From an uncultured Candidatus Saccharibacteria bacterium (GTDB lineage: Bacteria; Patescibacteriota; Minisyncoccia; Ryanbacterales; 2-02-FULL-48-12): a stretch of 64,000 nt of DNA. The notes under the pieces were generated by a model, which saw nothing but the letters and a program-made list of their open reading frames with translations, ran no database searches and was not told the origin of the DNA. The stretch spans positions 13,715-77,714 of the forward strand of contig CAYZNS010000004.1 in the NCBI GenBank assembly GCA_964479945.1. Direction: 5' to 3'. Positions 5,470 to 59,907 of this stretch are shown piece by piece. The position numbers were made by a program, and so were the translations under genes. Each line of letters starts with the position of its first letter. Positions within the stretch are counted from its first letter, which is position 1.

Positions 5470-7371
5470 ATGTCAAAGATACTAGGAATTGACCTCGGTA
5501 CCACCAACTCCGCCATGGCGGTGATGCAGGCGGGGCAGCCGAAAATAATAGAAAACAAAGAAGGGAACCGCACCACGCCGTCCATGGTAGCGGTCTCTAA
5601 AACGGCCGAGCGCCTGGCCGGTTTGCTTGCCAAGCGTCAGGCAATTACGAATCCTAAAAACACCATTTATTCCGCGAAGCGTCTGATCGGGCGCACGTTC
5701 ACGGACGCGCAGCTGGATAAGGACAAAGAAACCCTGCCATATGACATCCGCGCGTCGGCAAGCGGCGGCGTTGAGATTCGCATGGCGGATAAATGGTATA
5801 GGCCGGAGGAGATCTCTGCTATGGTTCTCCAGAAACTCAAGCATGATGCCGAAGAATACTTGGGCGAGAAAATAACGGAAGCGATTATAACCGTTCCTGC
5901 GTATTTTGACGACGATCAGCGGCAGGCAACCAAAAATGCGGGTGAGATAGCGGGCCTTACCGTGCGCCGAATTATCAACGAGCCCACGGCGGCCGCGCTT
6001 GCGTACGGGTTTGATAAAAAGAAGAACGAAAAGATAGTAGTGTATGATTTCGGCGGCGGCACGTTTGACGTATCAGTGCTGGAAATCGGCGACAATACCA
6101 TTGAGGTGCGCGCCACAGGCGGAGATACGCATTTGGGAGGGGATGATTTTGATCAGAAAATTATTGATCACCTTGTCGTGGAATTCAAGAAGGAATCCGG
6201 CATAGATATCTCAAAGGACGGCCTTGCCCTTCAGCGTCTTAAAGAAGCGGCGGAGAAAGCAAAACATGAATTATCTACTACGGTAGAGACGGAAATAAAT
6301 ATTCCCTTTATAACTTCCGGCGCGGACGGGCCGCAGCATCTCCTAATCAAGCTCGCGCGCGCCAAGTTGGAATCCCTGGTGAGTGAATATGTCTTACGCT
6401 CCGTGGAAATAACCAGGCAGGTAGTGCGCGATGCAAAATTTGAACTACACGCGATAGACGAAGTCATTTTGGTGGGCGGACAAACGCGCATGCCAGCCAT
6501 TGTAAATGCGGTGAAGGAACTGTTCGGCAAAGAGCCGAACAAGTCCATCAACCCGGATGAAGTGGTGGCGGTTGGAGCAGCTATTCAGGGCGGCATTATG
6601 CAGGGAGACGTAAAGGATGTTCTCCTTCTGGATGTAACACCGCTTTCGTTTGGCATTGAAACATTAGGGGGGGTATTTACGCGCCTTATAGAAAAAAATA
6701 CCACCATTCCCACGGCCAAAAGCCAGATATTTTCCACCGCCGCGGACAATCAAACGTCCGTGGAAGTGCACGTGCTGCAAGGGGAGCGGGAATTCGCGCG
6801 GGACAACAAAAGCTTGGGCCGGTTTATATTGGACGGTATCCCGCCTGCCCCCCGCGGCATGCCGCAAGTGGAGGTTACGTTTGACATTGATGCGAACGGC
6901 ATCCTCAATGTGAAAGCAAAAGACAAAGCGTCCGGCAAAGAACAATCCATTCGTATTGAAGCGTCTACCGGACTCTCCAAGGAAGAGATAGAGCGCATGA
7001 AGCAGGATGCGGCCGCGCATGCCGAGGAAGACAAGAAACGCAAAGAGACTGTGGAAATGAAAAATACGGCAGACGCGCTTATCTACACGGCGGAGAAGTC
7101 TCTCCGCGACGCGGGCGACAAAGCGCCGGAAGATATCCGCAAAGACGTGGAGACGAAAATAGAGGATCTCAAAAAAGCGAAGGAAGGGGATGACGCGCAG
7201 CAGATTCAAAACGTGTCCAGCGCGCTGCAAGCATCGCTTTCAAAGATAGGCGAGTATCTCTACAAGCAGCAGCCGCAAGAGAACAAAGGCACGCAATCAA
7301 CTGATGATAAGAAAGACAATGTGAAAGATGCGGAGTTCAAGGATGTAGAAGATAAGAATAAAGAATCATGA
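5470..7371 (+). CDS. dnaK: molecular chaperone DnaK (Hsp70)
   Basis: [18 protein letters not shown], full Hsp70 architecture, 633 aa. Confidence 0.95.
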
Positions 7372-7569
7372 ATCATGAATCATGAATTATGAAATATGGA
7401 AAACGTAAAACTCTAAACTCTAAGTCCTAAACAAGTCTCAAGTTCAAAGTGCAAAGTTCAAAAAGAGGTTTTTATGCTTTATGTTTTTATCTTCGAGTTT
7501 GTTTAGAGTTTAGGGTTTGGAACTTAGAATTTTTGTCCTTGATTCATAATTCTTACTTCATAATTCAAA
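7372..7569. repeat. heptamer-based imperfect palindromic spacer (catgaat / aactcta motifs and their reverse complements)
   Basis: tandem atcatga x3 at left edge mirrored by ttcataa repeats at right edge; nested inverted repeats seen directly. Confidence 0.6.
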
Positions 7570-8544
7570 ATGCTTTATACTGAAAGCATTATGACGAATG
7601 TTAAATCTTTCATTGTCGGCATAATCATAGTTGCGTCTTCTGTCCCTTTTTGGTTTTTCTATCGCGAGGCAATCGGCCTCAATGCAGGTAACGGCCTTGC
7701 CGTGTCTTACGCGCTGATATTGCTGACAATTAATCTTGCCGCAACGGCGCTTTTGCTTCTGTTCGCGGAACGCGCGCGCATACTTATTGTGGTGGCCGTG
7801 CTGAACGCGTTTTCGTTTCTTTATTTTTTTGGCGCTTCCGTAATTACGGGCATAGGTGCGTTTTTTCTTTTGGCGGCCGTGTGGTACGCGTACGAGCGGG
7901 TGCATGCGGAGATTGAAAGCCGTATTACATTTAACGTGTCCATTCTGTTGCGGCAGGGCATGCCTTCCGTTCTTACGGCGCTTGCCATAGCGCTTGCATT
8001 GGGATATTTTGTGCAAACCGCGAAAACGCCCGAGCGCATTACCATACGCGATATTATTCCCCGCGCGGTGTTTGAGGCCGTATTTGAGAATACCGTTCCC
8101 TATATTGGCACTGCGGCGCTTGAGGGTTTTAGCGCCAATCTCACGGTTGACGAATACATAGAGCGGCAGCTTACAAAAGGCGGGCTGGATATAACACAGC
8201 TCCCCGCCGGCGAGCGGGAACAAGTTTTTGCCCGCGCCCGGGAAGAGCTGTTTCGGCAGGTTTCCGACACGCTGCCGGAAACTTCCATTCAGGGTGATAC
8301 GCGCATCGGCGACGTATTGTATGACATTATTATTGCGCGAAGCGAGCAGGTACTCGCACCCTATCAGCAGTTTATCCCTTTTGCGTTTGCATTCGGACTC
8401 TTTTTATTTCTTCGTACGGTTGCGCTGCCATATGGGTGGGCAATTTCATGGATTATCCGCGGCGCCATAGCGCTGCTTCGGCGCGGAGGAGTGGTGGTGC
8501 GAACGGAGGAACAGGCTGTGAAAGAACGCATGTCTTGGGCATGA
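7570..8544 (+). CDS. hypothetical polytopic membrane protein
   Basis: 324-aa ORF with multiple hydrophobic helices; no recognisable family. Confidence 0.45.
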   Translation: MLYTESIMTNVKSFIVGIIIVASSVPFWFFYREAIGLNAGNGLAVSYALILLTINLAATALLLLFAERARILIVVAVLNAFSFLYFFGASVITGIGAFFLLAAVWYAYERVHAEIESRITFNVSILLRQGMPSVLTALAIALALGYFVQTAKTPERITIRDIIPRAVFEAVFENTVPYIGTAALEGFSANLTVDEYIERQLTKGGLDITQLPAGEREQVFARAREELFRQVSDTLPETSIQGDTRIGDVLYDIIIARSEQVLAPYQQFIPFAFAFGLFLFLRTVALPYGWAISWIIRGAIALLRRGGVVVRTEEQAVKERMSWA

Positions 8545-8622
8545 AGGGGAGGGATATCCACAGGATTTTGGTTACGAGGCGCTTGACAAGCCAGACGCAT
8601 TTTTGATACATAAGAAAGTAAC

Positions 8623-8742
8623 ATGAATACGATAGGTCGCAGCTATTACATGGGCAGGGAGGCAAGCGCTCTCCTCTTTTGGGGCGTGCTTTTTATTACT
8701 CTCTTTGCCATCGTAACGGGGCGGCTTCAGGTGTTTTCCTAA
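8623..8742 (+). CDS. possible small hydrophobic peptide (39 aa)
   Basis: ATG ORF MNTIGRSYYMGREASALLFWGVLFITLFAIVTGRLQVFS following a TTGACA-like box; speculative. Confidence 0.2.
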   Translation: MNTIGRSYYMGREASALLFWGVLFITLFAIVTGRLQVFS

Positions 8743-8791
8743 AACAAAAGGAGGCAGAAAAAGGAAAACAAAAACAAGAGTATATCAAGCA

Positions 8792-8826
8792 GCCGATCCC
8801 GCAAAAACGGGATCGGTTTTTTTGTT
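8792..8826 (+). terminator. intrinsic terminator
   Basis: GCCGATCCCG-caaaaa-CGGGATCGG hairpin followed by T7 run. Confidence 0.6.
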
Positions 8827-8851
8827 CTTTAACAACAACATAGGAGGGTGT

Positions 8852-9223
8852 ATGCAGAAATGCGTAGATTGCGGAGCATTCACGGATGTTGTGGAAGGCG
8901 GTTTCCAGTGTCCGGCTTGCGGGTTGTTTTTCCAGCGAAGCGCCGGAAACCGTATTCGTATTTCCGGAAATGAATTACGGCGTATTGCGTCCAAAGCTAT
9001 GAAAACAGAAGAATGGAGGTGTCCTGTGCAGTGTAAATGCGGATCAGATATGGCGCCTATAGATCAGGGAGTATTTTTATGCCATGCATGCGGTATAACG
9101 CGGGAAGTGAAAAACAACGAATGGAAAGAGAATGACCTGATCGCCCGCATGGACAAGCGGTTTAAGGGATTTCGCGATCATGTAAACACATTTTTTTACC
9201 TGCTGCGGCAATCGCCGTTCTAG
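8852..9223 (+). CDS. hypothetical double zinc-ribbon protein
   Basis: four CxxC pairs (CVDCG, CPAC, CPVQCKCG, CHACG); strong SD AGGAGGG before ATG at 8852 (the track ORF begins at an upstream TTG at 8822). Confidence 0.5.
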   Translation: MQKCVDCGAFTDVVEGGFQCPACGLFFQRSAGNRIRISGNELRRIASKAMKTEEWRCPVQCKCGSDMAPIDQGVFLCHACGITREVKNNEWKENDLIARMDKRFKGFRDHVNTFFYLLRQSPF

Positions 9224-12741: not shown

Positions 12742-12993
12742 ATGTCTTCCCAAAAACAAACAATAGAACAATCCCTTAAACGCCTCGAAAAGATCGTGGA
12801 AGAACTTAACGCACGCGACGTGGATGTTGAGGAAGGGCTTGCCAAATTCAAAGAAGGCGTGGAATTAATAAAGGCGTGCCGCAGCCAGCTGGGTCAGGCG
12901 GAAAATGAGTTTAAGAAATTACAAAAGGAGTTAGATGCTGATGATAAAAGTACTTTTTTTGAAGGAGGAGAAAATAATAGTGATGAATTATGA
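12742..12993 (+). CDS. xseB: exodeoxyribonuclease VII small subunit
   Basis: SLKRLEKIVEELNARDVDVEEGLAKFKEGVELIKACRSQL; ATG at 12742 (the track ORF begins at an upstream GTG). Confidence 0.75.
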   Translation: MSSQKQTIEQSLKRLEKIVEELNARDVDVEEGLAKFKEGVELIKACRSQLGQAENEFKKLQKELDADDKSTFFEGGENNSDEL

Positions 12994-13106
12994 AGCATGA
13001 ATTATGAATTACGGAGAAAAAAGAATTGCGAGTTTTATAATACTTTTCCATAATTCCATATTCATGATTCATGTAAATAGATGAGTAATCGTATTGATAG
13101 AAAATA

Positions 13107-15878: not shown

Positions 15879-16058
15879 AATGTGGAAACGTATCTATACC
15901 ATCAGGCAAGAAACAATTGAGCGGCGCCTATTCCCCCTTATGATACTATGTTTATTATAAACGGTTATTTTTAAGATAGGCTCTATTTACTTTATATAAA
16001 AAATAAGGTAGTGTCTAGACAAGTTTGAAATTCATGTCTTATATAGTAAGGAGAGCGT

Positions 16059-16424
16059 ATGAGTTATTTGGATCAAGAAGGTGTAAGCGGCATATTTCTG
16101 TCGGAAATCATCATTCAAGCAACACCAGGGTACGCGTCGTGGGAGCTCGTCAAGAAAAATATACAGCATTCAGGCGAAACGCGGCTCATCTGGGCAGTTT
16201 TTTATGAAGCCGTTGGGTATCTTCTAAAACACTATCAAGAACATGTCTGCAATGCCGCCGTAAAGCGGGAGATCAAAGATGTGGAAGATTGGATTAACAA
16301 CAATGATGATGCTTGGCCATTTAGTTTTATAAATATTTGCAGAAATCTTGGATTAGATCCTGACTATGTTCGGAGCGGGATCGCGCGCAAAAAGCGAGTC
16401 CTTTCTGGACTAGTACCCCATTAA
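16059..16424 (+). CDS. hypothetical protein, paralog 1 of a tandem pair
   Basis: shares C-terminal W..F.F.NIC..LGL.P.Y.R.G block with the following ORF; SD present. Confidence 0.5.
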   Translation: MSYLDQEGVSGIFLSEIIIQATPGYASWELVKKNIQHSGETRLIWAVFYEAVGYLLKHYQEHVCNAAVKREIKDVEDWINNNDDAWPFSFINICRNLGLDPDYVRSGIARKKRVLSGLVPH

Positions 16425-16526: not shown

Positions 16527-16928
16527 ATGGGTGTCAATGATTCATGGAAGGGCGCTAATACATTAGGAAACTGCACAATCTTGCCGGAACAATTTTTTCC
16601 GGTGCAAAGCCACAAATTCACGCCTGAGATGAGATTGTTGGTCGCCATCCTTGAAGATGCTCTTCACATTTTTCAACGATGTGCGCATGCAAGAACAAGG
16701 CGTGAACGGCGCCTTTGGGAGGAAGTACGGGATTGGTTCTGGGATAAGGAGGAGTCAATATGGTTGTGTAATTTTGAAAATATTTGCGGCATATTGGGGT
16801 TGGAACCCGGGTATCTCCGATGCGGGCTAACCGCATGGCTAGAAAAGGCAAAACAAGATCCTCAACTTAAAATACCTCTCCGGCAGCGCGTAAATAGATG
16901 CGGCAGTCATCGCGTCTCTGATGAATAA
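16527..16928 (+). CDS. hypothetical protein, paralog 2 of a tandem pair
   Basis: EMRLLVAILEDALHIF…WLCNFENICGILGLEPGYLRCG aligns to paralog 1. Confidence 0.5.
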   Translation: MGVNDSWKGANTLGNCTILPEQFFPVQSHKFTPEMRLLVAILEDALHIFQRCAHARTRRERRLWEEVRDWFWDKEESIWLCNFENICGILGLEPGYLRCGLTAWLEKAKQDPQLKIPLRQRVNRCGSHRVSDE

Positions 16929-17281: not shown

Positions 17282-20200
17282 ATGCAAAAGAAATATTTTT
17301 CGCGGTATAAAGAGCCGCTTATGCCGCTGCCTGACTTGGTGGATATGCAGGTCAGCTCTTTTCGGTGGATGCTGGAGAAAGGTATGCATGAGCTTTTTAG
17401 CGATTTCTTTCCGGTAGAGGACTACTCGGGCGGCCTTCGGTTGGAATTTGCCGAATTTGCCCTGGAAGACCCGAAACACGATGAATACCACGCGCGCGAT
17501 CACAATCTTTCTTATGAAGCTCCGTTGCGGCTTCGCTTGCGGCTGGTAAACAAAAAAACAGGAGAGTTAAAAGAGCAGGAAGTTTTTTTGGGGGATTTTC
17601 CCCTGATGACGAAACGCGGCACCTTTGTTATAAACGGCGTTGAGCGGGTTATAGTTTCGCAGCTTGCCCGTTCATTCGGCGTATACTTTACGGAATATTA
17701 TCTCCGCGGCAAAAAGTTTTTTGGCGCAAAAATTGTGCCTTCGCGCGGCGCATGGCTGGAGTTTGAGACGGATATTGACGGCGCCATTTATGTAAAAATA
17801 GACCGCAAGCGGCGCATACCCGTCTCTTCACTGCTGCGGATACTTGGCCTTCATACGGATGATGAAATAAAAAACGCGTTTGGAACGGTAGACAACACGG
17901 ACGTATCGTATATCGGCCGCACGTTGGAAAAAGATACGGCGCGCACTCTGGATGAAGCATATGTGGAGCTCTACAAGCGCATTCGGCCGGGGGATCTTGC
18001 CACGGTGGATAATGCGCGCGAACTTTTGCAGAGCATGTTCGGCTCGGATCGGTACGATCTTTCCCTGGTGGGGCGGTATAAGTTTAATCAGCGCTTGCAG
18101 TTGGAAAGCGGGACAAAAGCAGGGACCCGCGTTTTAGACGCGCAAGATATAACGGCGGTTGTATCGGAGATTATCCGCATGAACCAGAATCCGCATCTAA
18201 CGGCAGACGATATTGACCATCTTGGAAACCGGCGGGTTCGCGGCATCGGCGAGATGCTGCAAAGCAGGCTTCGTATTGGCTTGGCGCGCATGGAGCGCAT
18301 TATCAAAGACCGCATGTCAACGCTAGATGCAAGCTTGCTCACGCCGGTTCAACTGGTAAACGCGCGGCCGTTTATGGCGGCTATGAAAGAATTTTTCACC
18401 ACGAACCAACTGTCCCAATTCATGGACCAGACAAATATCTTAGCCGAGTTGGAACACAAGCGGCGCGTATCTGCCCTTGGTCCCGGCGGGCTTACGCGGG
18501 AGCGCGCTGGTTTTGAAGTGCGCGACGTGCATCCGTCCCACTATGGCCGCATCTGTCCCATTCAGACGCCGGAAGGCCCGAACATCGGGTTGGTAGGCCA
18601 CCTTGCCAGCTACGCGCGCATAAGCGAATACGGCATTATTGAAACGCCATATCGCAAGGTTGAAGACGGAAAGCTTACCAGTGAAATTCAATATCTGACG
18701 GCATTTGAGGAAGCGCGGTTTAATATTGCGCATGCGGGCGTTCCGTATCTCTCTGATGGCACTATTGCCGAGGATCTGGTGGAAGCGCGCGTCAAAGGCC
18801 AGCCGGGCGTTGTCTCAAAGAGCGACATACAATATATGGATATCTCGCCCCAGCAGGCAATCAGTATTGCCACGTCCCTTATTCCGTTTCTGGAGCACGA
18901 TGACGCAAACCGTGCCTTGATGGGCTCCAACATGCAGCGCCAGGCCGTTCCCAATATTTTGCCGCAAGCGCCGTTGGTGGCGACTGGCGTAGAAGGCCGC
19001 GTGGCGCGCGACTCGGGCTTGGTGGTGGTAGCTGAAGAAGCGGGAACGGTAACCGCCGTGGACGCGCGGGAAATCATCGTAAAAGAAAGCAAGCAGGAGC
19101 GTACATATCAACTTATCACGTATCTGCGTTCAAACAATGCCACGGCTTTGCATCACCGGCCACTGGTGCACGTGGGCGAAAAGATAGAAAAAGGCCAAGT
19201 GCTTGCCGATAATCTCTCTACGAACAACGGCCAGCTGGCGCTGGGGCAGAATATATTGGTATCGTTTCTTTCCTGGGGCGGATCAAACTATGAAGACGCT
19301 ATTATCTTGTCGGAGCGGTTGGTGCAGCGGGACGCCTTCAGCACGGTACACATTGAAGATTTTACCATCAACGTGCGCGACACAAAGCTTGGTCCGGAAG
19401 TAACCACCCACGATATTCCGAACGTGGGCGAAGACAAGTTAAAGGACCTTGACGAAGAAGGAATTGTGCGTATTGGTGCGGAAGTGCGGCCGGGAGACAT
19501 TTTGGTAGGAAAAATATCGCCGAAGGGCGAGTCTGACTTAACGCCGGAGGAGCGGCTCTTGCGCGCGATTTTCGGTGAGAAAGCGCGGGACGTAAAAGAC
19601 TCTTCGCTGCGCATGCCGATCGGCAAACAGGGGCGCGTGGTAGGGGTGAAAGTGTTCTCGCGCGATCAGGGCGACCGTTTGGAGTCGGGTGTAATTAAAA
19701 GCGTGCGCGTGGAAGTGGCACAGCTTCGTAAAGTTCTGGTGGGCGATAAGCTTGCAGGGCGGCACGGAAACAAAGGCGTTATTTCAAGAATTCTGCCGGT
19801 GGAAGATATGCCGCATCTCAAGGACGGCACGCCGGTTGACATTATATTAAATCCGCTGGGCGTGGCATCGCGCATGAATATCGGTCAGATTTTAGAGACG
19901 CATCTTGGCTGGGCGGCGGGCACGGCGGGATATCAAGCTATAACGCCGTCGCTTCTGGGCGCTTCGGACGAAGAAATTCACGCGGAGCTTGAAGCGGCCG
20001 GCTTGCCGGAGGATGGCAAGGTGGAACTGTACGACGGCCGCAGCGGCGAGCTCTTCGGCCAGCGCGTAACCGTAGGCATTATTTATATGATGAAGCTCAC
20101 ACACATGGTGGAAGACAAAATCCACATGCGCTCCATCGGGCCGTATTCACTTATTACTCAGCAGCCGCTCGGCGGAAAAGCGCAAGGCGGCGGGCAGCGG

Positions 20201-20446
20201 TTCGGCGAGATGGAAGTATGGGCGCTGGAAGGATTCGGCGCCGCACACACGCTGCAGGAGATGCTTACCATAAAATCTGACGACGTTGCCGGGCGCGTGT
20301 CCACATATGACGCCATTGTGCGCGGGGAGCCGTTTAAGAATCCAAATATTCCGGCGTCATTTCATGTGCTTGTAAATGAACTTAAAGGATTAGCTTTAGA
20401 CGTGGATCTTGTACATGAAGCCAAGCATGAACTTGAGAGAGAATAA
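17282..20446 (+). CDS. rpoB: DNA-directed RNA polymerase subunit beta (compact)
   Basis: full RpoB motif set, 1054 aa. Confidence 0.95.
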   Translation: MQKKYFSRYKEPLMPLPDLVDMQVSSFRWMLEKGMHELFSDFFPVEDYSGGLRLEFAEFALEDPKHDEYHARDHNLSYEAPLRLRLRLVNKKTGELKEQEVFLGDFPLMTKRGTFVINGVERVIVSQLARSFGVYFTEYYLRGKKFFGAKIVPSRGAWLEFETDIDGAIYVKIDRKRRIPVSSLLRILGLHTDDEIKNAFGTVDNTDVSYIGRTLEKDTARTLDEAYVELYKRIRPGDLATVDNARELLQSMFGSDRYDLSLVGRYKFNQRLQLESGTKAGTRVLDAQDITAVVSEIIRMNQNPHLTADDIDHLGNRRVRGIGEMLQSRLRIGLARMERIIKDRMSTLDASLLTPVQLVNARPFMAAMKEFFTTNQLSQFMDQTNILAELEHKRRVSALGPGGLTRERAGFEVRDVHPSHYGRICPIQTPEGPNIGLVGHLASYARISEYGIIETPYRKVEDGKLTSEIQYLTAFEEARFNIAHAGVPYLSDGTIAEDLVEARVKGQPGVVSKSDIQYMDISPQQAISIATSLIPFLEHDDANRALMGSNMQRQAVPNILPQAPLVATGVEGRVARDSGLVVVAEEAGTVTAVDAREIIVKESKQERTYQLITYLRSNNATALHHRPLVHVGEKIEKGQVLADNLSTNNGQLALGQNILVSFLSWGGSNYEDAIILSERLVQRDAFSTVHIEDFTINVRDTKLGPEVTTHDIPNVGEDKLKDLDEEGIVRIGAEVRPGDILVGKISPKGESDLTPEERLLRAIFGEKARDVKDSSLRMPIGKQGRVVGVKVFSRDQGDRLESGVIKSVRVEVAQLRKVLVGDKLAGRHGNKGVISRILPVEDMPHLKDGTPVDIILNPLGVASRMNIGQILETHLGWAAGTAGYQAITPSLLGASDEEIHAELEAAGLPEDGKVELYDGRSGELFGQRVTVGIIYMMKLTHMVEDKIHMRSIGPYSLITQQPLGGKAQGGGQRFGEMEVWALEGFGAAHTLQEMLTIKSDDVAGRVSTYDAIVRGEPFKNPNIPASFHVLVNELKGLALDVDLVHEAKHELERE

Positions 20447-20738
20447 CACAATTTACCATGAATCAAGAATTATGAATTATGGGATTTGAAAGTAATAAGA
20501 GCCTATCTCAAAAATAATGAGGAGCTGAAATCCTTAAAATTCGTTGCGAAAATTGCAAAAAATGAGGAGGCATAGCGAGCTATGGCGACGAGTTTTTTGC
20601 AATTTGCAGCCGAATTTTAAAGATTTCAGCCCTCAAGTGCCATAATTTGTTATATTTGCACGGTTATTTTTGAGATAGGCTCAAGTTAATGCTTCTTTTT
20701 TCCTTAATTCATAATTCAAGATTCATAATTCATATTTC
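20447..20738. repeat. 292-nt nested near-perfect palindrome forming the rpoB-rpoC spacer
   Basis: outer catgaatcaagaattatgaatt / aattcataattcaagattcataattcat; perfect 19-bp GAGCCTATCTCAAAAATAA/TTATTTTTGAGATAGGCTC; further nested arms. Confidence 0.7.
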
Positions 20739-23700
20739 ATGAACACTTTAGAAAAAGACAACATAATAGTAGATCAGAATTTTGACGCAATTGCCTTGCG
20801 GCTGGCTTCGCCCGCGCGCATGTTGGAGTGGTCGCATGGGGAAGTCTTGAAACCGGAAACCATCAACTACCGCACCCAGCGGCCGGAGCGCGACGGTTTG
20901 TTTTGCGAGCGCATATTCGGGCCAGAGAAGGATTACGAGTGTTACTGCGGAAAATACCGCCGCATCCGTTTTAAAGGCATCATCTGCGACAAATGCGGCG
21001 TTGAAGTTACGCGCGCGGTGGTGCGAAGAGAACGCATGGGGCATATTGCGCTGGCGTCTCCCGTTTCGCACATTTGGTTCTTACGCGGCGTGCCTTCCAA
21101 AATGAGCTTGCTCTTGGGCGTCTCCGTCAGCGATCTGGAGAAAGTAATTTATTTCGCGGGCTATATTGTACAGCATGTGGACGAGGATCGGCGCCGGGAG
21201 GTTTTGTCAGAGATTGAGCGCGAGTATAAATTGAAATTGAAAGCGGGCGTGCGGGACAAAGACACGCTGAAAGAGGCGGCTGACCAGGCAAAGTCGGAAG
21301 TAAAAAGCATCACGCGCATGCAGGTGCTCTCGGAAGTGGAATATCACCACATCAGCATGAAATACGCCAATCTCTTCCGCGCGGGCATAGGTGCCGAAGC
21401 GTTGTACGATATTTGCACGGGTGTTGATTTTACCGTGTTGGAATCAAGCTTGAATGAAGAAGCGGAGCGCTCTTCAAATCCGGTGCAGAAGCGAAAAATA
21501 TTAAAACGCTTGCAGCTTGTCCGGGCCATGCAGACTACCGGCATACGTCCCGAATGGATGTTTCTTACCATTATTCCAGTTATTCCGCCGGCGCTGCGGC
21601 CCATGGTTCCCCTTGATGGCGGGCGGCACGCAACCAGCGATGTCAACGATTTATACCGGAGAGTAATCAACCGGAACAACCGCTTGAAACGCCTCTATGA
21701 ACTCAAAGCGCCTGAAGTAATATGCCGCAATGAAAAGCGCATGCTGCAGGAAGCGGTGGACGCGTTGATAGACAACTCTATCCGGCGGGGACAGGCAGTG
21801 GTAACGTCGCAGGCGCAAAAGCGCCCGCTGCGTTCTCTCGCCGACATGCTCAAAGGCAAGCAAGGGCGGTTCCGGCAAAATTTGCTGGGCAAGCGCGTGG
21901 ATTACTCCGGGCGTTCCGTTATTGTGGTAGGGCCTGACTTGAAACTGCATCAGTGCGGCTTGCCGAAGCATATGGCATTAGAGTTGTTTCGTCCATTCGT
22001 AATCCGAAAAATCATTGAGCGCGGGCTTGCGTTTAACATCCGCGGCGCCGGACGCCTTATTGAAGACGCGACCCCCGACGTATGGGCGATTTTGGAAGAG
22101 GTGGTGGATGGCAAATACGTGCTCTTAAATCGCGCGCCCACGCTGCATCGCTTGGGAATCCAGGCATTCCAGCCGAAACTTATTGAAGGCCGCGCTATAC
22201 AGCTGCATCCGCTCTCGTGCGAAGCGTTTAATGCCGATTTCGACGGCGACCAGATGGCGGTGCACGTGCCGCTTACGAAAGAAGCGCAGTATGAGGCGCG
22301 TGAAATTATGGCGGCGGAAAAAAATTTGCTCAAACCCGGCACGGGCGATGCCATCGCGCGGCCGCAGCAAGATATCGTGCTTGGCTGCTACTGGCTGACG
22401 CAAGTAAAGGATGGCGCGCAAGGGGAGGGCAAAATATTTTCCGACCGCCAAGAAGCGTTGATGGCGCTGGAACACGGCGCGGTGAGTCTGCAGGCGAAGA
22501 TTAAAGTGCGGTTAACCGAGAATGAATTGGAGCTTACGGAAACAACCCCCGGTCGCATTATTTTCAATAACGCCCTGCCGGATGGATTTGAGTTTGTTAA
22601 TAACGGGCTCAATAAAAAATTTCTCACGGCGCTTACGAGTAAAATCGTACGCCAGTACGGCGCGGAGGGATCGGCCCCCATTCTGGACAGCATAAAAGAT
22701 ATTGGTTTCGAGTATGCCACGCGTTCGGGTATAAGCTGGGGCATCAGCGATCTGCCGGAGTTGACCCGCAAGAAAGAGATTATTGATCAAGCGCTCGCGG
22801 ATGCGCAAGTGGTTCGCGATCAGTTTGAGCGCGGACTGCTTACGGACACAGAGCGCTATGCCAAGGTGGTGGAAATTTGGAATACGAAAGTAAAGCCTCA
22901 AATAGACAAAGAGGTGCGGGAATCTTTGGATAAGGCAGGCCCTATTTTCTCCATGATCGATTCCGCCGCGCGCGGCTCTTGGGTACAGGTAAACCAAATG
23001 GCGGGCATGAAAGGCATGGTCGTCAATCCATCCGGCCGGATTATTGAGCTTCCCATTGTTTCCAGTTATAAAGAAGGCCTCAATGTGCTTGAATATTTCA
23101 TATCTACGCACGGCGCGCGTAAAGGCACGGCGGATACGGCATTAAAAACCGCGGCGGCCGGCTATTTGACGCGGCGTTTGGTTGATGTGGCCCAGGATGT
23201 GGTGGTAACGGAGGAAGATTGCAATGATGATAACGGCCTCATTGCGTACCGGAAGGATGTGGAAGAGGTAAATAAAAGTTTCGCTTCGCGCATATTCGGG
23301 CGCACGCTGCTGGCCGATGCGCGGCATCCGGAAACAAAGAAGGCGCTTGCGCGCGCCGGCGAAATAATTACCATTGACATGGCGGAACTTATTGATAAGT
23401 CCGGGCTTTCTACGGTGCATCTGCGCTCTCCCGTAACGTGCAAGACGCGCCGCGGCGTGTGCCAGGCATGTTATGGCTATGATTTGGGGACAAATTCGCA
23501 AGTGCGTATCGGCGAGGCGGTTGGCATTGTAGCGGCCCAGGCGATCGGCGAGCCCGGCACCCAGCTTACCATGCGCACATTCCATATCGGCGGCGTGGCG
23601 GGCGGCGGCGATATCACGCTTGGCTTGCCCCGCGTGGAAGAAATATTTGAAATACGCACGCCGAAGACGAAGGCGATTATTTCCGAGGTAAACGGAAAGG

Positions 23701-24410
23701 TGTTGGAGATTAAGGATGAAAACCGCGACCGCATCGTACGCGTTCTTCCCGATGACGACGACGGCACAAAGCGCGATGTGCAGGAATATACGATTCCGTT
23801 CGGCAAGGGTGTGGTGGTAAGCGAACATGATGTGATAACAAAAGGCCAGCCGGTCTCTGACGGCATTGTGGATACGAAAGATCTCTTTAAGGTGGCCGGC
23901 ATAGCCGAAGCGCAGAATTATATTATTCGGGAAATCGGCAAAGTATACGCGCTGCAGGGCTCTCCTATTAACGAAAAGCATATTGAAGTCATTGTGCGCC
24001 AGATGTTTTCGCGCATACGGGTGAAGACCGCGGGTTCCACGCGTTTCAGCGAAGACGAAATAGTGGAGCGCGACCGCTTTCTGGAAGAAAATGACCGCGC
24101 GCTTGCCGCGAACGGCGATCCCGCAAAAGGCGTGCGGCTTTTGATAGGCATTTCCAAGACGGCGCTTTCGGTTTCCAGCTTCCTCTCGGCCGCAAGCTTC
24201 CAGGAGACCACGCGTGTTCTTATTAATGCGGCCATAGAAGGGCAGGTTGATCATCTGCGGGGCCTTAAGGAAAACGTAATAATCGGGCGCCTGATACCGG
24301 CTGGCACGGGATACCGCAAAGACATTCCAAAAACGATCGGACCGACCTACACCGAAGACGAAGAAGCGGAGGTGGAGATAGAAGAGATGGCAATGGAAGA
24401 ACAGGTGTAA
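20739..24410 (+). CDS. rpoC: DNA-directed RNA polymerase subunit beta'
   Basis: NADFDGD catalytic motif, Zn-binding CxxC N-terminus, 1223 aa. Confidence 0.95.
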
Positions 24411-24469
24411 GCAGTTGTAAGTAGTAAGTTGTAAGTTCTAAATAAAAAAACTGATAAATAAACAGTAAA

Positions 24470-24540
24470 AACCCCCTTCTCTGACCCCACCGTAATCCTC
24501 CCCTTATGAAGGGAAGGAAAGAGGAGGGGTTTTTTGTTTT
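24470..24540 (+). terminator. two-tier GC hairpin plus T-run (rpoC terminator)
   Basis: CCCCTTCTCT…AGAGGAGGGG stem then GGTTTTTTGTTTT. Confidence 0.55.
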
Positions 24541-24674
24541 GAATAATGGGACTGTTGCCGAATGGCACTTTTAGCGATTTTTGCCCGAAAATATCCTTAT
24601 TTTTCAACAGGCAAATTTAAAAAAACGGCATTCGGCAACAGTCCCATAATACAAGAGCTCATAAACATTTGCGA

Positions 24675-24708
24675 ATTACGAAACTCCACCAACGTTGTCA
24701 TTGCGAGG
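24675..24708 (+). repeat. 34-nt dispersed motif ATTACGAAACTC(C/T)(ACC/GTC)AACGTTGTCATTGCGAGG, copy 1
   Basis: second copy at 53575-53608 with 4 mismatches. Confidence 0.6.
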
Positions 24709-24857
24709 GCTATCCGCGCCTAGGCGGATCCGCCTTGGGCGGAAAATTCGTACGTTTTTATTCCCAATTTATCCAAATGAAAACCGCCCGACCAATGCCA
24801 GACGGTTTAATGGCAAGAACTCGCAAATCAGAGCAAGTGCCAGGATTGTGATCAGTT

Positions 24858-25034
24858 AGAAAGTGTTTACAAACCCTTCGTAGCGAAGCTTTCCTGCTTT
24901 GAGCTGATACAAGGAAGGCAAGTAAAACGGCATAAGGCGTAGCAACGCTACGGTGAAATGCTGTTTTACGCAGCCTGACGCCGTAGCAGCCAAAGCAGGA
25001 AAGCTGCAGTAGAAGGGGTTTGTAAACACTTTCT
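24858..25034. repeat. 177-nt rod-like hairpin element with 5' GCCAGGATTGTGA box
   Basis: perfect 19-bp outer stem AGAAAGTGTTTACAAACCC/GGGTTTGTAAACACTTTCT, 14-bp second stem, internal GCTACGG/CCGTAGC stem. Confidence 0.6.
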
Positions 25035-25076
25035 TAGTGACTTACAACTTACAACTTTTTTTGCTATACTATACTC

Positions 25077-27733: not shown

Positions 27734-27855
27734 CTTTGAATAACGAAAACCGCAGGGAATGTGACTAACCGAGCTCTGCACACAAGCGAAGCGAAGTGTG
27801 AATAGCTCGGTTTGGCACATTCCAGATGTCAAATAATGCGTTTCGTTATTCAAAG
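27734..27855. repeat. long palindromic element, copy A of the GTGACTARCCGAGCT family
   Basis: outer inverted repeat CTTTGAATAACGAAA/TTTCGTTATTCAAAG; core boxes GTGACTAACCGAGCTC and AGCTCGGTTTGGCAC; inner hairpin CACAC…GTGTG. Confidence 0.75.
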
Positions 27856-29124: not shown

Positions 29125-29217
29125 CTCGTAACTCGTAATCCGTAACTCGTAATCCGTACCAGGAAGATTAATAAGATAAAATTCCTTTGTACGAGTTACG
29201 GTTTACGGATTACGAAT
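29125..29217. repeat. hairpin of CTCGTAA/TTACGAG heptamer repeats between rpsR and ssb
   Basis: ctcgtaactcgtaatccgtaactcgtaatccgta … tacgagttacggtttacggattacga inverted arms. Confidence 0.7.
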
Positions 29218-32328: not shown

Positions 32329-32449
32329 CCCAGCACTAAATTTTTGGTTTAAATAGTGTGTGACTAACCGAGCTCTATCCCGGTGCAACCGCGGATGGAC
32401 AGCTCGGTTTGGCACTATACAAATATCGAACCAAAAATTTAGTGCTGGG
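32329..32449. repeat. long palindromic element, copy C
   Basis: outer inverted repeat CCCAGCACTAAATTTTTGGTT/AACCAAAAATTTAGTGCTGGG; core GTGACTAACCGAGCTC…AGCTCGGTTTGGCAC. Confidence 0.75.
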
Positions 32450-33027: not shown

Positions 33028-33267
33028 AGGCGGCCTGTCTAGCGCCCTTGCCATGTAAAATAAATCACGCCCCGCAACGGGATGCGTGATGTGCTCCGAC
33101 ATGGCGGAGACGGATCTCTCCACAAAGAGAGGCATCCGTGAGTGGGGACCCTGCCGAAGCAATAAGGCACGGGCGGGACCACAGCGCATGTATGGGAGGG
33201 TTACACACAAAACTCTCCCTACCTTTCTTGAGTACATGTTCTATAATGAAGATGTACTCAAATCAGG

Positions 33268-33573
33268 TTCACCCACACACCTTTTAGGAACATAGCAATG
33301 CATTATTTTTACATCCTTAAAAGTCAGATTGATAAGAAACTATACCGAGGATTTACCGGTAATCTTCGCAGACGATTTGACGAACATCAAAATGGCCGTG
33401 CTCTTTCAACGAAAAATCGTAGACCTTTTAGTTTGGTATATTATGAAGCATATAGATCAAAAACAGATGCGACCCGTCGTGAACAGCAGATGAAATTGAA
33501 TGCGAAGGCTTGGAGTCAGCTTAAGCGGCGTATTGCAACGAGTATAGAAGATACCTAAAAGGTGTGTGGGTAA
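33268..33573. repeat. 17-bp inverted repeats bracketing the GIY-YIG gene
   Basis: TTCACCCACACACCTTTTA (33268-86) vs TAAAAGGTGTGTGGGTAA (33556-73, overlapping the stop codon). Confidence 0.6.
33298..33558 (+). CDS. GIY-YIG nuclease-family small protein
   Basis: YFYILKS…KLYRGFTGNLRRRFDEHQNG…FSLVYYE…RRE matches the GIY-YIG core. Confidence 0.8.
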   Translation: MHYFYILKSQIDKKLYRGFTGNLRRRFDEHQNGRALSTKNRRPFSLVYYEAYRSKTDATRREQQMKLNAKAWSQLKRRIATSIEDT

Positions 33574-33759
33574 ACCGCCACAAGGCTGTTGAGTCAGTAC
33601 AACGGAATCGGGTTAAAGCGACGTTGTGAGATTTTTTAAAGATCTCTCTCCTCTAAACAATGTTTCTTGACCCGTATAATTTCTGTTTGCTGGCTCACAG
33701 CCTTGTGGCGGTACATAAAAAACCGCCTCGGATAATCGAGGGGGCACGTATCTCCATAC

Positions 33760-46037: not shown

Positions 46038-46722
46038 GCCAGGATTGTGACTAGCCGGGCTTCGCACACGCCCTGCAAGGGCGCTGTGAGTAGCCAGGCT
46101 TGGCACACTCCCCCACCAAAATTTTTGGTGGGGGAGCACATCCGGAAAAAGGTGGACAAAAAATTAAAAGTATGCTAAAAACTATGCAGACAGCAAACTG
46201 CATAGTTTTTTTGAAAGGGGGATTTGAAATGTCTGATCAGGAAAAAATACATGTTGCGTTATGCAATATTGGCAACATACATCTCACTAGAAAGATGGGC
46301 GAAATTATAGTATTTTGCTCCTTTAATAACCATATCAATTTCTATTTTAATGAGTCGGGAGTGCTTGAGGAGATTGAACTTTATAATTCACCTTCGTATC
46401 ATAGAAATATCCTCCAAGCCAGACATGAGTGGACAGGAACGCTTATCGGCGTCCGGTTGGAAGGAGATGAGTTATATCTCTATCCAAATAACGCTGGACT
46501 CGTGAAAGTGAATCTGAGAACTGGTTTCTTATACACAAAGTAACATTGATTGGGAGAGGGTGATATTCTCTCCTTTTTTATTGACATTTTTGATGTGTGC
46601 GTATATCATATTGATATTAATCTATATGTAATTTATTTTTGAAGTTTCTGTATCAATGCATTCTGGATGTGCTCCCCAACCAAAATTTTTGGTGGGGGAG
46701 TGTACCAAGCCGGGCTACTCGC
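46038..46722. mobile_element. palindromic element copy D split by a ~520-nt insertion with 58-nt terminal inverted repeats and a cargo ORF
   Basis: left TIR 46086-46143 and right TIR 46665-46722 each contain the 29-nt palindrome CTCCCCCACCAAAATTTTTGGTGGGGGAG; interior has its own terminator, SD, low-GC ORF, second terminator and a TTGACA-17-TATCAT promoter. Confidence 0.5.
46229..46543 (+). CDS. hypothetical protein (104 aa), cargo of the inserted element
   Basis: SD AAGGGGGA; AT-rich codon usage; no family recognised; the track ORF begins at an upstream ATG (46100) inside the repeat. Confidence 0.45.
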   Translation: MSDQEKIHVALCNIGNIHLTRKMGEIIVFCSFNNHINFYFNESGVLEEIELYNSPSYHRNILQARHEWTGTLIGVRLEGDELYLYPNNAGLVKVNLRTGFLYTK

Positions 46723-47031: not shown

Positions 47032-47067
47032 CAAGTTAAAAGTTAAAAGTGCAAAATGCAAAGTTAT

Positions 47068-47090
47068 GGTATCCCGCTTTCAGCGGGATG
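47068..47090 (+). terminator. GC hairpin terminator (GGTATCCCGC-tttcag-GCGGGATG) inside an A/T heptamer palindrome
   Basis: stem-loop flanked by gttaaaagtgcaaaatgcaaag / ttttgcactttgcactttg inverted arms. Confidence 0.5.
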
Positions 47091-47165
47091 ATTATATAAA
47101 TCCGTGAGCGAAGCGAACACCAAAATTTTGCACTTTGCACTTTGAATTTTGAACTAATATAGCAT

Positions 47166-48649: not shown

Positions 48650-48687
48650 AAAATGCAAAATGTAAAAATCAAAATGTAAAATTTTTG

Positions 48688-48709
48688 TATTCCGGCGAAG
48701 CCGGAATCA
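48688..48709 (+). terminator. GC hairpin terminator (TTCCGGC-gaa-GCCGGAA) inside an aaatg/cattt heptamer palindrome
   Basis: seen directly; between ferredoxin and SOD genes. Confidence 0.5.
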
Positions 48710-48778
48710 TTTTAGCATTTTACATTGTCATTTTGCATTTTGATTTTTACATTTTAAATTATAAACTAACAAGAAAAT

Positions 48779-50624: not shown

Positions 50625-50660
50625 AAAATTAAAAGTTAAAAATTAAAAGTGCAAAGTGTT

Positions 50661-50684
50661 GGTATTCCGGCTGCGCCGGAATGA
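50661..50684 (+). terminator. GC hairpin terminator (TTCCGGC-tgc-GCCGGAA)
   Basis: same family as 48688 with compensatory loop change. Confidence 0.5.
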
Positions 50685-50806
50685 ATGTACTGTGAATTAC
50701 GAAATGCATTATTTGACATCTGGAATGTGTCATTTCGTAATTCACAGAATGTATATAATCCGTGAGCGAAGCGAACACCAAAATTTTGAATTTTGCACTT
50801 TAAATT

Positions 50807-53574: not shown

Positions 53575-53608
53575 ATTACGAAACTCTGTCAACGTTGTCA
53601 TTGCGAGG
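53575..53608 (+). repeat. 34-nt dispersed motif, copy 2, followed by GAGCGAAGCGA box and CTCGCAATGAC inverted partner
   Basis: seen directly. Confidence 0.6.
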
Positions 53609-53693
53609 AGCGAAGCGACGTAGCAATCTCATAATTTTCAATACGCTCGCAATGACAATATTCTGATGTTTCATAAATCAAAAAATTATATGT

Positions 53694-59788: not shown

Positions 59789-59809
59789 TATGGATGCATC
59801 ACGGACTTC

Positions 59810-59887
59810 GCTGAAGGATATGCGCTTCAGGAGGGTTTACTTGGCCAAGCGGCCGTGAGCGCCCTCCTGAAGCGCATATCCTTCAGC
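59810..59887. promoter_or_regulatory. perfect 26-bp inverted repeat with 26-nt spacer between divergent glycosyltransferase genes
   Basis: GCTGAAGGATATGCGCTTCAGGAGGG … CCCTCCTGAAGCGCATATCCTTCAGC; spacer contains CTTGGCCAAG palindrome. Confidence 0.6.
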
Positions 59888-59907
59888 AAATAATTACATA
59901 TGTTACA

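Follow-up and report, generated by a model that had tools for sequence, protein, structure and literature searches.

What kind of sequence keeps the RNA polymerase genes rpoB and rpoC apart by 292 nt of nearly perfect palindrome, and was it selected to act on the operon in which it lies? The question is raised by a 64,000-nt stretch of contig CAYZNS010000004.1 (assembly GCA_964479945.1) from an uncultured Candidatus Saccharibacteria bacterium, hereafter the window, in which the genes for the beta and beta' subunits are both intact and the insert between them (20447-20738) is wholly intergenic. The original prediction for this spacer, made from the letters alone, described a multi-tier palindrome with a unique centre that would fold into a hairpin of about 140 bp, and offered an RNase III processing site, an attenuator, or a selfish palindrome tolerated in an essential operon as explanations. 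In the following, we describe evidence that the spacer is very probably a composite of two nested non-autonomous repeats—a miniature inverted-repeat transposable element (MITE) inside a second, hairpin-forming repeat—that is tolerated at an essential operon junction.

A long palindrome is indeed present, and all four tiers of inverted repeats were found: 20458-20482 with 20702-20726 (88% complementarity), 20499-20517 with 20664-20682 (19 of 19 positions), 20524-20543 with 20611-20630 (95%), and 20550-20576 with 20579-20605 (only 78%). The RNA structure predicted for the spacer is a single long, imperfect hairpin with a free energy of -122 kcal/mol, compared to -59 +/- 4.5 kcal/mol for dinucleotide shuffles (z = -14). 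The anticipated length of 140 bp proved too generous, as the main stem comprises only about 94-100 pairs; the approximately 94 long-range pairs consist of 61 A-U, 27 G-C, and 6 G-U pairs, and 107 pairs are formed overall. The base of the folded helix lies about 11 nt from the rpoB stop codon and about 12 nt from the ATG of rpoC, which has no visible Shine-Dalgarno sequence. At 292 nt, the spacer exceeds all 78 other rpoB-rpoC spacers that were measured (median 52 nt, maximum 237 nt).

What had been described as tiers around a unique centre is better understood as two elements, one of which lies nested in the other's loop. The inner element (Table 1) was recognized from its copies elsewhere. 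Full copies occur in eight further loci, all in metagenome contigs (L087, L089, L090, L092, L095, L097, L098, and L100; L numbers denote the fetched loci), and pairwise blastn together with an alignment that included the flanks defined a discrete, non-coding family unit of 184-190 nt, the copies of which are 81-95% identical to one another and have unrelated flanks. The rpoBC copy itself is 97.3% identical to that in L095, 96.8% identical to that in L087, and 80-89% identical to the remainder. A metagenome scan with the 21-nt right end, GGTTATTTTTRAGATAGGCTC, returned 15 loci, and at all 15 the similarity to the window runs leftward for about 165 nt and ends exactly at GGCTC. The resulting counts (at least eight distinct full copies and four partial ones) are lower bounds, because the scan missed contig Ga0185320_10487386 (L082) despite an exact match.

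The ends of the element are of the GAGCCTATCTC type, and its terminal inverted repeat, a perfect 19 bp, is almost unchanged among the nine copies. In all eight other copies, both ends adjoin the dinucleotide TA (TA-GAGCC...GGCTC-TA); at rpoBC, both adjoin AA. If this dinucleotide were part of the inverted repeat, the AA/AA copy would need two independent, non-complementary mutations; the dinucleotide is thus read as a 2-bp direct target duplication. Bacterial MITEs as defined by Delihas are less than 200 bp, non-coding, and A+T-rich, with terminal inverted repeats, terminal TA, target duplications, and transcripts that form long stem-loops (PMC2229807). The element shows the corresponding size and lack of coding capacity, the terminal inverted repeats, the TA or target duplication, the dispersed copies, and the stable stem-loop. 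We therefore assign it to a MITE family that is previously undescribed in Patescibacteria, and the structure is not a new kind of regulatory element; a full-text literature search found no paper describing MITEs in this group.

The hairpin of the MITE, which folds alone to -90 kcal/mol, is kept up by compensatory substitutions. Its consensus structure across nine independent copies contains 65 pairs, with 98.5% of cells paired, versus 34-47% when the partners are slid; double-sided compensatory changes were found in 8 of the 65 pairs (e.g., CG/GC in four versus four copies, and AU/GC in five versus four), and the covariation score of 0.123 (0.070 in shuffles) was reached by none of 500 shuffles. 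These copies also bear on a more mundane explanation, namely that the palindrome arose by local inverted duplication of the region upstream of rpoC or as an assembly or amplification chimera. Fold-back artefacts can give near-perfect palindromes, and the right half recurs singly at 15941-15985; on the other side, an assembly artefact is excluded by two assemblies of independent origin, ENA ERZ27245644 and JGI 3300017437, which carry the identical RpoC and agree at 100% across the 331-nt junction, and the complete palindrome, asymmetry included, recurs with sharp boundaries at many other loci. Refuted by both lines of evidence, a duplication or chimera retains a negligible probability.

All copies of the MITE are intergenic and lie at tight junctions, with gaps of -1 to 13 nt between the other copies and their adjoining ORFs (open reading frames); neighbouring genes include RNase H/ComEC, metK, a ZIP transporter gene, and 6PGD. 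The only ORF within the element has 12 codons. A small peptide encoded at its centre (an SD-like GAGGAGG followed by ATG and 12 codons) was considered and rejected, as the ATG is replaced (GCTACG) in four of the nine copies, and a tRNA guessed downstream of the L095 copy was not found by ARAGORN.

Table 1. Coordinates, in the window, of the genes and repeat components discussed in the text.
Feature	Position	Strand	Basis or remarks
rpoB (RNA polymerase beta)	17282..20446	+	Pfam Rpb2 domains 1-7; stop TAA 20444-20446
Outer repeat, left arm, ATGAATC AAGAATT ATGAATT ATGG	20458..20482	+	Pairs with 20702-20726; heptamer quasi-repeats
Outer loop, left part; MITE landing site	20483..20496	+	Reconstruction without MITE
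Flanking direct repeat, left copy (AA)	20497..20498	.	Nine-copy alignment with flanks
MITE-like palindromic element, 184 nt	20499..20682	+	Tiers 2-4 plus palindrome centre; matches eight metagenome copies
Left terminal inverted repeat GAGCCTATCTCAAAAATAA	20499..20517	+	19/19 with 20664-20682; near-invariant among copies
Asymmetric unpaired A+T-rich segment, right arm only, AAGTGCCATAATTTGTTATATTTGCACG	20636..20663	+	About 28 nt; unpaired variable alignment columns 141-169
Right terminal inverted repeat TTATTTTTGAGATAGGCTC	20664..20682	+	Includes -35-like hexamer TTGAGA
Flanking direct repeat, right copy (AA)	20683..20684	.	Alignment with flanks
Outer loop, right part	20685..20701	+	T6 run 20696-20701 directly after extended MITE stem; sequence and minimum-free-energy structure
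Outer repeat, right arm CCTTAATTCATAATTCAAGATTCATAATTCAT	20702..20733	+	Pairs with 20458-20482; near-identical to L089 copy
rpoC (RNA polymerase beta')	20739..24410	+	Pfam Rpb1 domains 1-5
ATGAATY-armed hairpin repeat	7363..7568	+	Between dnaK and next ORF; other heptamer hairpins nested within; arm at 7363-7403
ATGAATY-armed hairpin repeat, simple	12983..13073	+	Between xseB and M3 peptidase gene; arm at 12983-13020
Solo MITE right-end fragment	15941..15985	+	Asymmetric segment, right terminal repeat (one mismatch), flanking TA; about 45 nt

The arms that surround the MITE belong to a second repeat. When the MITE and one AA are taken out of the rpoBC spacer, the remaining 106 nt form a simple hairpin of -28.5 kcal/mol, and similarly armed hairpins are known from three places in the window (including rpoBC) and one in L089. 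In the simple window copy, the xseB stop codon falls inside the left arm. The L089 copy stands alone in an unrelated context (468-545, about 80 nt; arm 468-503), and its right arm, CCCTTAATTCATAATTCCAGATTCATAATTCAT, differs from that at rpoBC at about two positions and by one extra base. Allowing at most one mismatch, AATTCATAATTC occurs 11 times, versus 0.9 expected. The suggestion of a selfish palindrome tolerated in an essential operon is accordingly the part of the original prediction that fared best: the inner 184 nt are a dispersed MITE-like element, the outer arms a second dispersed repeat, and relatives lack the insert.

The genome belongs to the Patescibacteria/Parcubacteria, and the rpoB-rpoC junctions of its nearest relatives are very short. 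In the closest relative with a contig (GCA_007375985.1, L083), the N-terminal 500 aa of RpoC are 86% identical and the spacer is 8 nt (TAA, aaacgtat, ATG); the spacer is 6 nt in the next, intermediate hit (L084) and 16 nt in L085 (71% identical over the N-terminal 500 aa of RpoC). In L083 and L085, rpoC likewise has no visible Shine-Dalgarno sequence. Neither the MITE nor the outer repeat is found in the spacers of these three relatives, and spacers range from about 0 to 89 nt in sixteen Patescibacteria species representatives. Since the relatives have spacers of 6-16 nt and both genes are intact, the palindrome is a lineage-specific insertion into a once very tight junction. The spacer comparison with related genomes had been proposed at the outset, with the view that absence of the spacer from all close relatives, together with uninterrupted read-through transcripts, would speak against a dedicated regulatory role; the first half of that pair is what the comparison returned, the insert being missing in all close relatives examined. 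As side observations, the proteins P0005 and P0082 of relatives carry both RpoB C-terminal (Rpb2_6/7) and RpoC N-terminal domains, and may represent fused rpoB-rpoC ORFs or read-through gene calls. The rpoB-rpoC spacer of L004 contains a hairpin of about 70 nt (187-273; z about -4), and in L012 four tandem TTCAAAT heptamers (5955-5988) immediately precede the rpoC ATG. The L012 spacer was considered as a member of the outer-repeat family and rejected, as its heptamers are different (TTCAAAT, four times) and it contains no large hairpin. In the window itself, the rpoB start assigned by gene callers is 17321 (1041 aa; gene calls in L081 and L082).

Structured intergenic RNA that modulates downstream expression is familiar from the rplKAJL-rpoBC operon of E. 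coli, in which an attenuator and an RNase III site occupy the rplL-rpoB spacer. That element lies upstream of rpoB, is conserved in position, and is not dispersed, whereas the present palindrome is confined to one lineage and has copies at unrelated loci. A cis-regulatory RNA selected for, and dedicated to, rpoBC—an RNase III site or an attenuator that sets the beta:beta' ratio—would fit the extreme stability of the hairpin and the run of six T directly after the extended inner stem, and RNase III cuts MITE hairpins within operon transcripts elsewhere (PMC10969869, PMC2649163). Yet the same unit of about 185 nt adjoins unrelated genes at no fewer than eight other loci, every relative examined lacks the palindrome, so that its position is not conserved, and a consensus scan of 20440-20760 found no terminator; the stem base preceding the T6 run is rich in A-U and G-U pairs, and the run is re-paired by the outer stem. 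Rfam at its gathering threshold returned only tRNAs across the whole window, and a permissive scan of the spacer gave only generic microRNA-precursor hairpins, all far below threshold (the best, MIR444, at 35.7 bits versus a gathering score of 110). We consider a dedicated regulator quite unlikely. As the palindrome also occurs at unrelated loci, RNase III processing or attenuation cannot be why the structure exists. Double-stranded RNA of about 100 bp is nevertheless a plausible RNase III substrate, and the rpoBC mRNA may be cut there; the example of Correia elements makes processing by RNase III, or attenuation, a plausible side-effect at rpoBC (PMC2649163, PMC10969869), and the insert may have undergone secondary exaptation as a regulator of rpoBC. 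Attenuation at the T6 run or an outward promoter in the right arm of the element are weaker possibilities.

The right end of the MITE deserves separate consideration. A motif of the palindrome had been reported to recur at 15961-15983, upstream of a pair of paralogous ORFs. The recurrence stands, with one mismatch, and the homology really spans about 45 nt (15941-15985); counted as the 19-mer arm, the sequence occurs three times versus 0.01 expected, the third occurrence, with one mismatch, being at 15965-15983. This fragment is 88-97% identical to the copies in L089, L097, and L100 (blastn), sits 75 nt upstream of the ORF that begins at 16059, and has comparable right-end-only counterparts in L086 (606-654), L088, and L096. 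It is a truncated right end of the MITE, and a shared regulatory motif is not demonstrable. The two ORFs downstream of it (16059-16424 and 16527-16928) are weak paralogs of each other (32% identity over 76 aa, E = 6e-10), and neither matched a Pfam or NCBIfam family; rplJ and rplL often occupy this position upstream of rpoB.

Such fragments lend some colour to the reading of the MITE as an "insulating" cassette, in which transcription arriving from upstream would end at the hairpin and be restarted into rpoC from an outward-facing promoter in the asymmetric right half, at TGnTATTAT or at the -35-like TTGAGA of the right terminal repeat. Most copies carry an A+T-rich bulge at a conserved position with TGnTATTAT-like strings (in the rpoBC copy, the segment 20636-20663 holds an extended -10-like string, TGnCATAAT), the right end faces downstream in seven of eight co-directional gene contexts, and truncated copies keep exactly the right end upstream of ORFs (15941-15985 in the window and 606-654 in L086). 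Correia elements, moreover, are reported to make promoters at their ends (PMC2649163). The orientation bias, however, reaches only p of about 0.035 (binomial, n = 8), and no part of the MITE varies more than the bulge. A sigma-70 consensus scan of four copies gave no consistent promoter and none above shuffled expectation, although promoter rules in Patescibacteria may differ. Consensus scans of the window copy and three others likewise gave no support to a built-in promoter or terminator, with nothing above shuffled expectation, and we regard an insulating cassette as unlikely.

For the composite of nested repeats, the following course of events can be proposed. A hairpin repeat of about 100 nt with tandem ATGAATY arms would have come to lie in what was a very short gap between rpoB and rpoC; a MITE with GAGCCTATCTCAAAAATAA and TTATTTTTGAGATAGGCTC ends, about 185 nt long, would then have entered the loop of this hairpin, duplicating 2 bp (normally TA, here AA). 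Mobilization would have occurred in trans, through a cut-and-paste transposase of the IS630/Tc1-mariner type that duplicates 2 bp, as suggested by established insertion sequence (IS) biology and by the precedent of RUP and IS630 (PMC2229807). The insert is presumably co-transcribed with its neighbours, given that the predictions place no consistent promoter or terminator within it. With both elements palindromic, the co-transcribed RNA would form a single stem that roughly restores the stop-start proximity to the 6-16 nt of the relatives, and an insert folded away in this manner would roughly keep any termination-reinitiation coupling, which could explain why such elements are tolerated at tight junctions.

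Several observations weigh against this account. The window (about 64 kb) and the roughly 100 kb of copy-bearing contigs yielded neither an autonomous element with matching ends nor an IS630-type transposase. The rpoBC copy is flanked by AA and not by the canonical TA. No same-species empty site is available for comparison, and the closest relative with a contig (L083) is only about 76% identical in rpoB/rpoC DNA, so that "recent" can be used of the insertion only in a relative sense. Mobility of the outer repeat rests on just four copies, with no recognizable target duplication. In addition, the flanks of the L089 copy of the MITE (6387-6408 and 6592-6597) agree with those of the rpoBC copy (20477-20498 and 20683-20688 in the window) over about 22 nt on the left and about 6 nt on the right, which simple TA-targeted insertion does not explain; the left flank of the L089 copy is the 3' end of an 89-aa ORF, and the common flanks could reflect composite mobilization or a preferred target sequence. 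Finally, whatever effects the insert may have on the function of rpoBC, we infer all of them by analogy.

Searches for a mobilizing enzyme were likewise negative by other routes: no matching terminal repeats more than 200 nt apart exist among the 100 fetched loci, the ORFs of the window include no transposase by Pfam or NCBIfam, a viral-contig scan gave 0 hits, and plasmid blastn gave no match. Transposase genes of the Y1_Tnp family do occur in the clade, in L085 (5527-6222) and in the copy-bearing contig L087 (7822-8433). Their surroundings are distinctive: the Y1 (IS200/RAYT-type) gene of L087 is flanked by and interspersed with four copies of a short perfect palindrome, TGTCAAACACTWAGTGTTTGACA (7742-8973), and that of L085 is accompanied by three copies of another, CCAAGGTCSGACCTTGG (5488-6228). 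These genes and palindromes constitute a REP-RAYT-like arrangement in Patescibacteria contigs (REP, repetitive extragenic palindromic sequence; RAYT, REP-associated tyrosine transposase). Together with the wealth of hairpin repeats in the intergenic regions of the window, they invite the view that the rpoBC palindrome is a sequence of the REP type, or of the bacterial interspersed mosaic element (BIME) type, or else an IS200/IS605-derived palindrome (palindrome-associated transposable element, PATE), moved by a Y1 (HUH) transposase or a RAYT. Y1 systems, however, do not make long terminal inverted repeats and 2-bp duplications, both of which are present here. The palindromes flanking the Y1 genes (17-23 nt) are the genes' own, unrelated to the rpoBC element and missing from the window, one of them being confined to L087 among the fetched loci, and the window contains no Y1 homolog. 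Known REPs, similarly, are only about 20-40 nt and have neither terminal inverted repeats nor target duplications, whereas the rpoBC element is 184 nt with both; the likeness to REP/BIME-RAYT systems extends to abundant intergenic hairpin-forming repeats and to RAYT-like genes in related contigs. Mobilization by a Y1 transposase or RAYT is thus very improbable.

With the nested-repeat composite as the favoured interpretation, its closest counterparts can be sought among the small repeats of other bacteria. To our knowledge, there is no sequence relationship between the rpoBC MITE and the Correia (NEMIS/CREE) elements of Neisseria, and the two are likened here by features, as functional analogues and not as members of one family. 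Like the rpoBC MITE, Correia elements are small, non-coding, and A+T-rich, with long terminal inverted repeats and a TA duplication, occur at gene junctions and in operons, and yield transcripts with long stem-loops (PMC2649163, PMC2229807, PMC10969869). Correia elements are documented to bring about RNase III cleavage of host mRNAs and to create promoters at their ends (PMC2649163, PMC10969869), whereas for the rpoBC MITE either property would be expected by analogy only. The MITE differs in its length (about 185 nt versus about 107 or 155 nt), in being palindromic almost throughout and not only at its ends, in its Patescibacteria host, and in having no recognized IHF (integration host factor) site. 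The RUP elements of Streptococcus pneumoniae and other IS630-mobilized MITEs share with it TA insertion, a 2-bp duplication, and a DDE transposase presumed to act in trans, RUP having been linked to IS630 and TA targets (PMC2229807). RUP, however, has a matching insertion sequence, IS630-Spn1, with similar terminal repeats, while no partner was found for the rpoBC MITE, which is flanked by AA instead of TA.

Nesting, too, has precedents. RNase III cleaves transcripts containing Correia elements, and insertion of one MITE into another is known (PMC10969869, PMC2649163), as it is for small bacterial repeats more generally (PMC10969869). The BOX/RUP/SPRITE clusters of pneumococcus resemble the rpoBC composite in that repeats lie inside one another, here a MITE in the loop of an ATGAATY hairpin; the sequences and host are different, and the nesting at rpoBC is strictly loop-in-stem, so that the whole stays one long hairpin. 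A further resemblance to these clusters is found next to rpoC, in the 666-nt rpoC-ftsK spacer (24411-25076), the folding of which is as strong as that of the rpoBC spacer (z about -17) and where at least three dispersed modules form a cluster nested in outer arms of GTAAGTW heptamers.

The remainder of the window is similarly populated, with 10 of 37 intergenic spacers folding at z below -6. The MITE-bearing contigs have no coding sequence in common with the window, yet share with it the stretches 24543-24650, 24858-25037, 47095-47151, and 48661-48755 at 84-99% identity. In the rpoC-ftsK spacer, module 24543-24650 has copies in L095 (99%) and L090 (95%), module 24858-25037 in L095 (98%) and L097 (96%), and module 24673-24746 in L097 (84%); elsewhere, 47095-47151 matches L089 3697-3753 at 98%, and 50625-50806 is homologous to 47032-47165 with an extra nested hairpin (50690-50747; 17-nt perfect arms). 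Many arms of these hairpins are built from quasi-repeats of about 7 nt that are specific to each family (AAACTCT, TCGTAAY, AAGTTAA/AAGTGCA, and AATGYAA), for example in the spacers at 7404-7520, 29126-29215, 47033-47149, 48650-48760, and 50640-50800. The lag-7 autocorrelation of pooled intergenic DNA shows a corresponding excess of +0.043 in the window, where lag 14 peaks as well; related contigs reach +0.008 to +0.009, and the value for other bacteria is -0.006.

Further observations concern individual spacers. Three tandem heptamers place TAA or TGA in all three frames. An inner hairpin module, GTGACTAACCGAGCT...AGCTCGGTTTGGCAC, is common to three spacers (about 27770-27830, 32370-32425, and 46050-46095), and a second module, GAATTACGAAACTC..CAACGTTGTCATTGCGAGG(A)GC, occurs in two (about 24680-24720 and 53580-53630). 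An 86-aa ORF with a GIY-YIG nuclease domain (33298-33558) lies inside a 23-nt inverted repeat of 96% complementarity (33266-33288 and 33554-33576), and the whole (33266-33576) may be a small mobile cassette. At 59807-59890, a 29-nt inverted repeat (97% complementary; hairpin of about -66 to -76 kcal/mol) lies in the spacer between divergent glycosyltransferase genes, where a terminator would be unexpected.

A bolder interpretation of these hairpins would treat the heptamer-armed repeats and the MITEs nested in them as lineage-specific "junction cassettes" whose spread generates the period of seven, and which are tolerated or even used since their stem keeps stop and start adjacent. Coupling would thereby be preserved for genes such as rpoC that have no Shine-Dalgarno sequence, and an added RNase III point would uncouple the decay of rpoB and rpoC mRNA. 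We put this forward as a doubtful proposition, and continue to favour the composite of two tolerated, non-autonomous repeats.

The genomes of Patescibacteria (the candidate phyla radiation, CPR) are usually described as highly streamlined. The 64-kb window nonetheless holds at least six families of dispersed hairpin repeats in its gene junctions, with one nested pair between the genes for beta and beta'. Palindromes of this kind disrupt assembly as well as gene prediction, and could be used to tell strains apart. If the double-stranded RNA of about 100 bp were processed, or acted as an attenuator, a selfish element would set the expression ratio of two essential, stoichiometric subunits of RNA polymerase.

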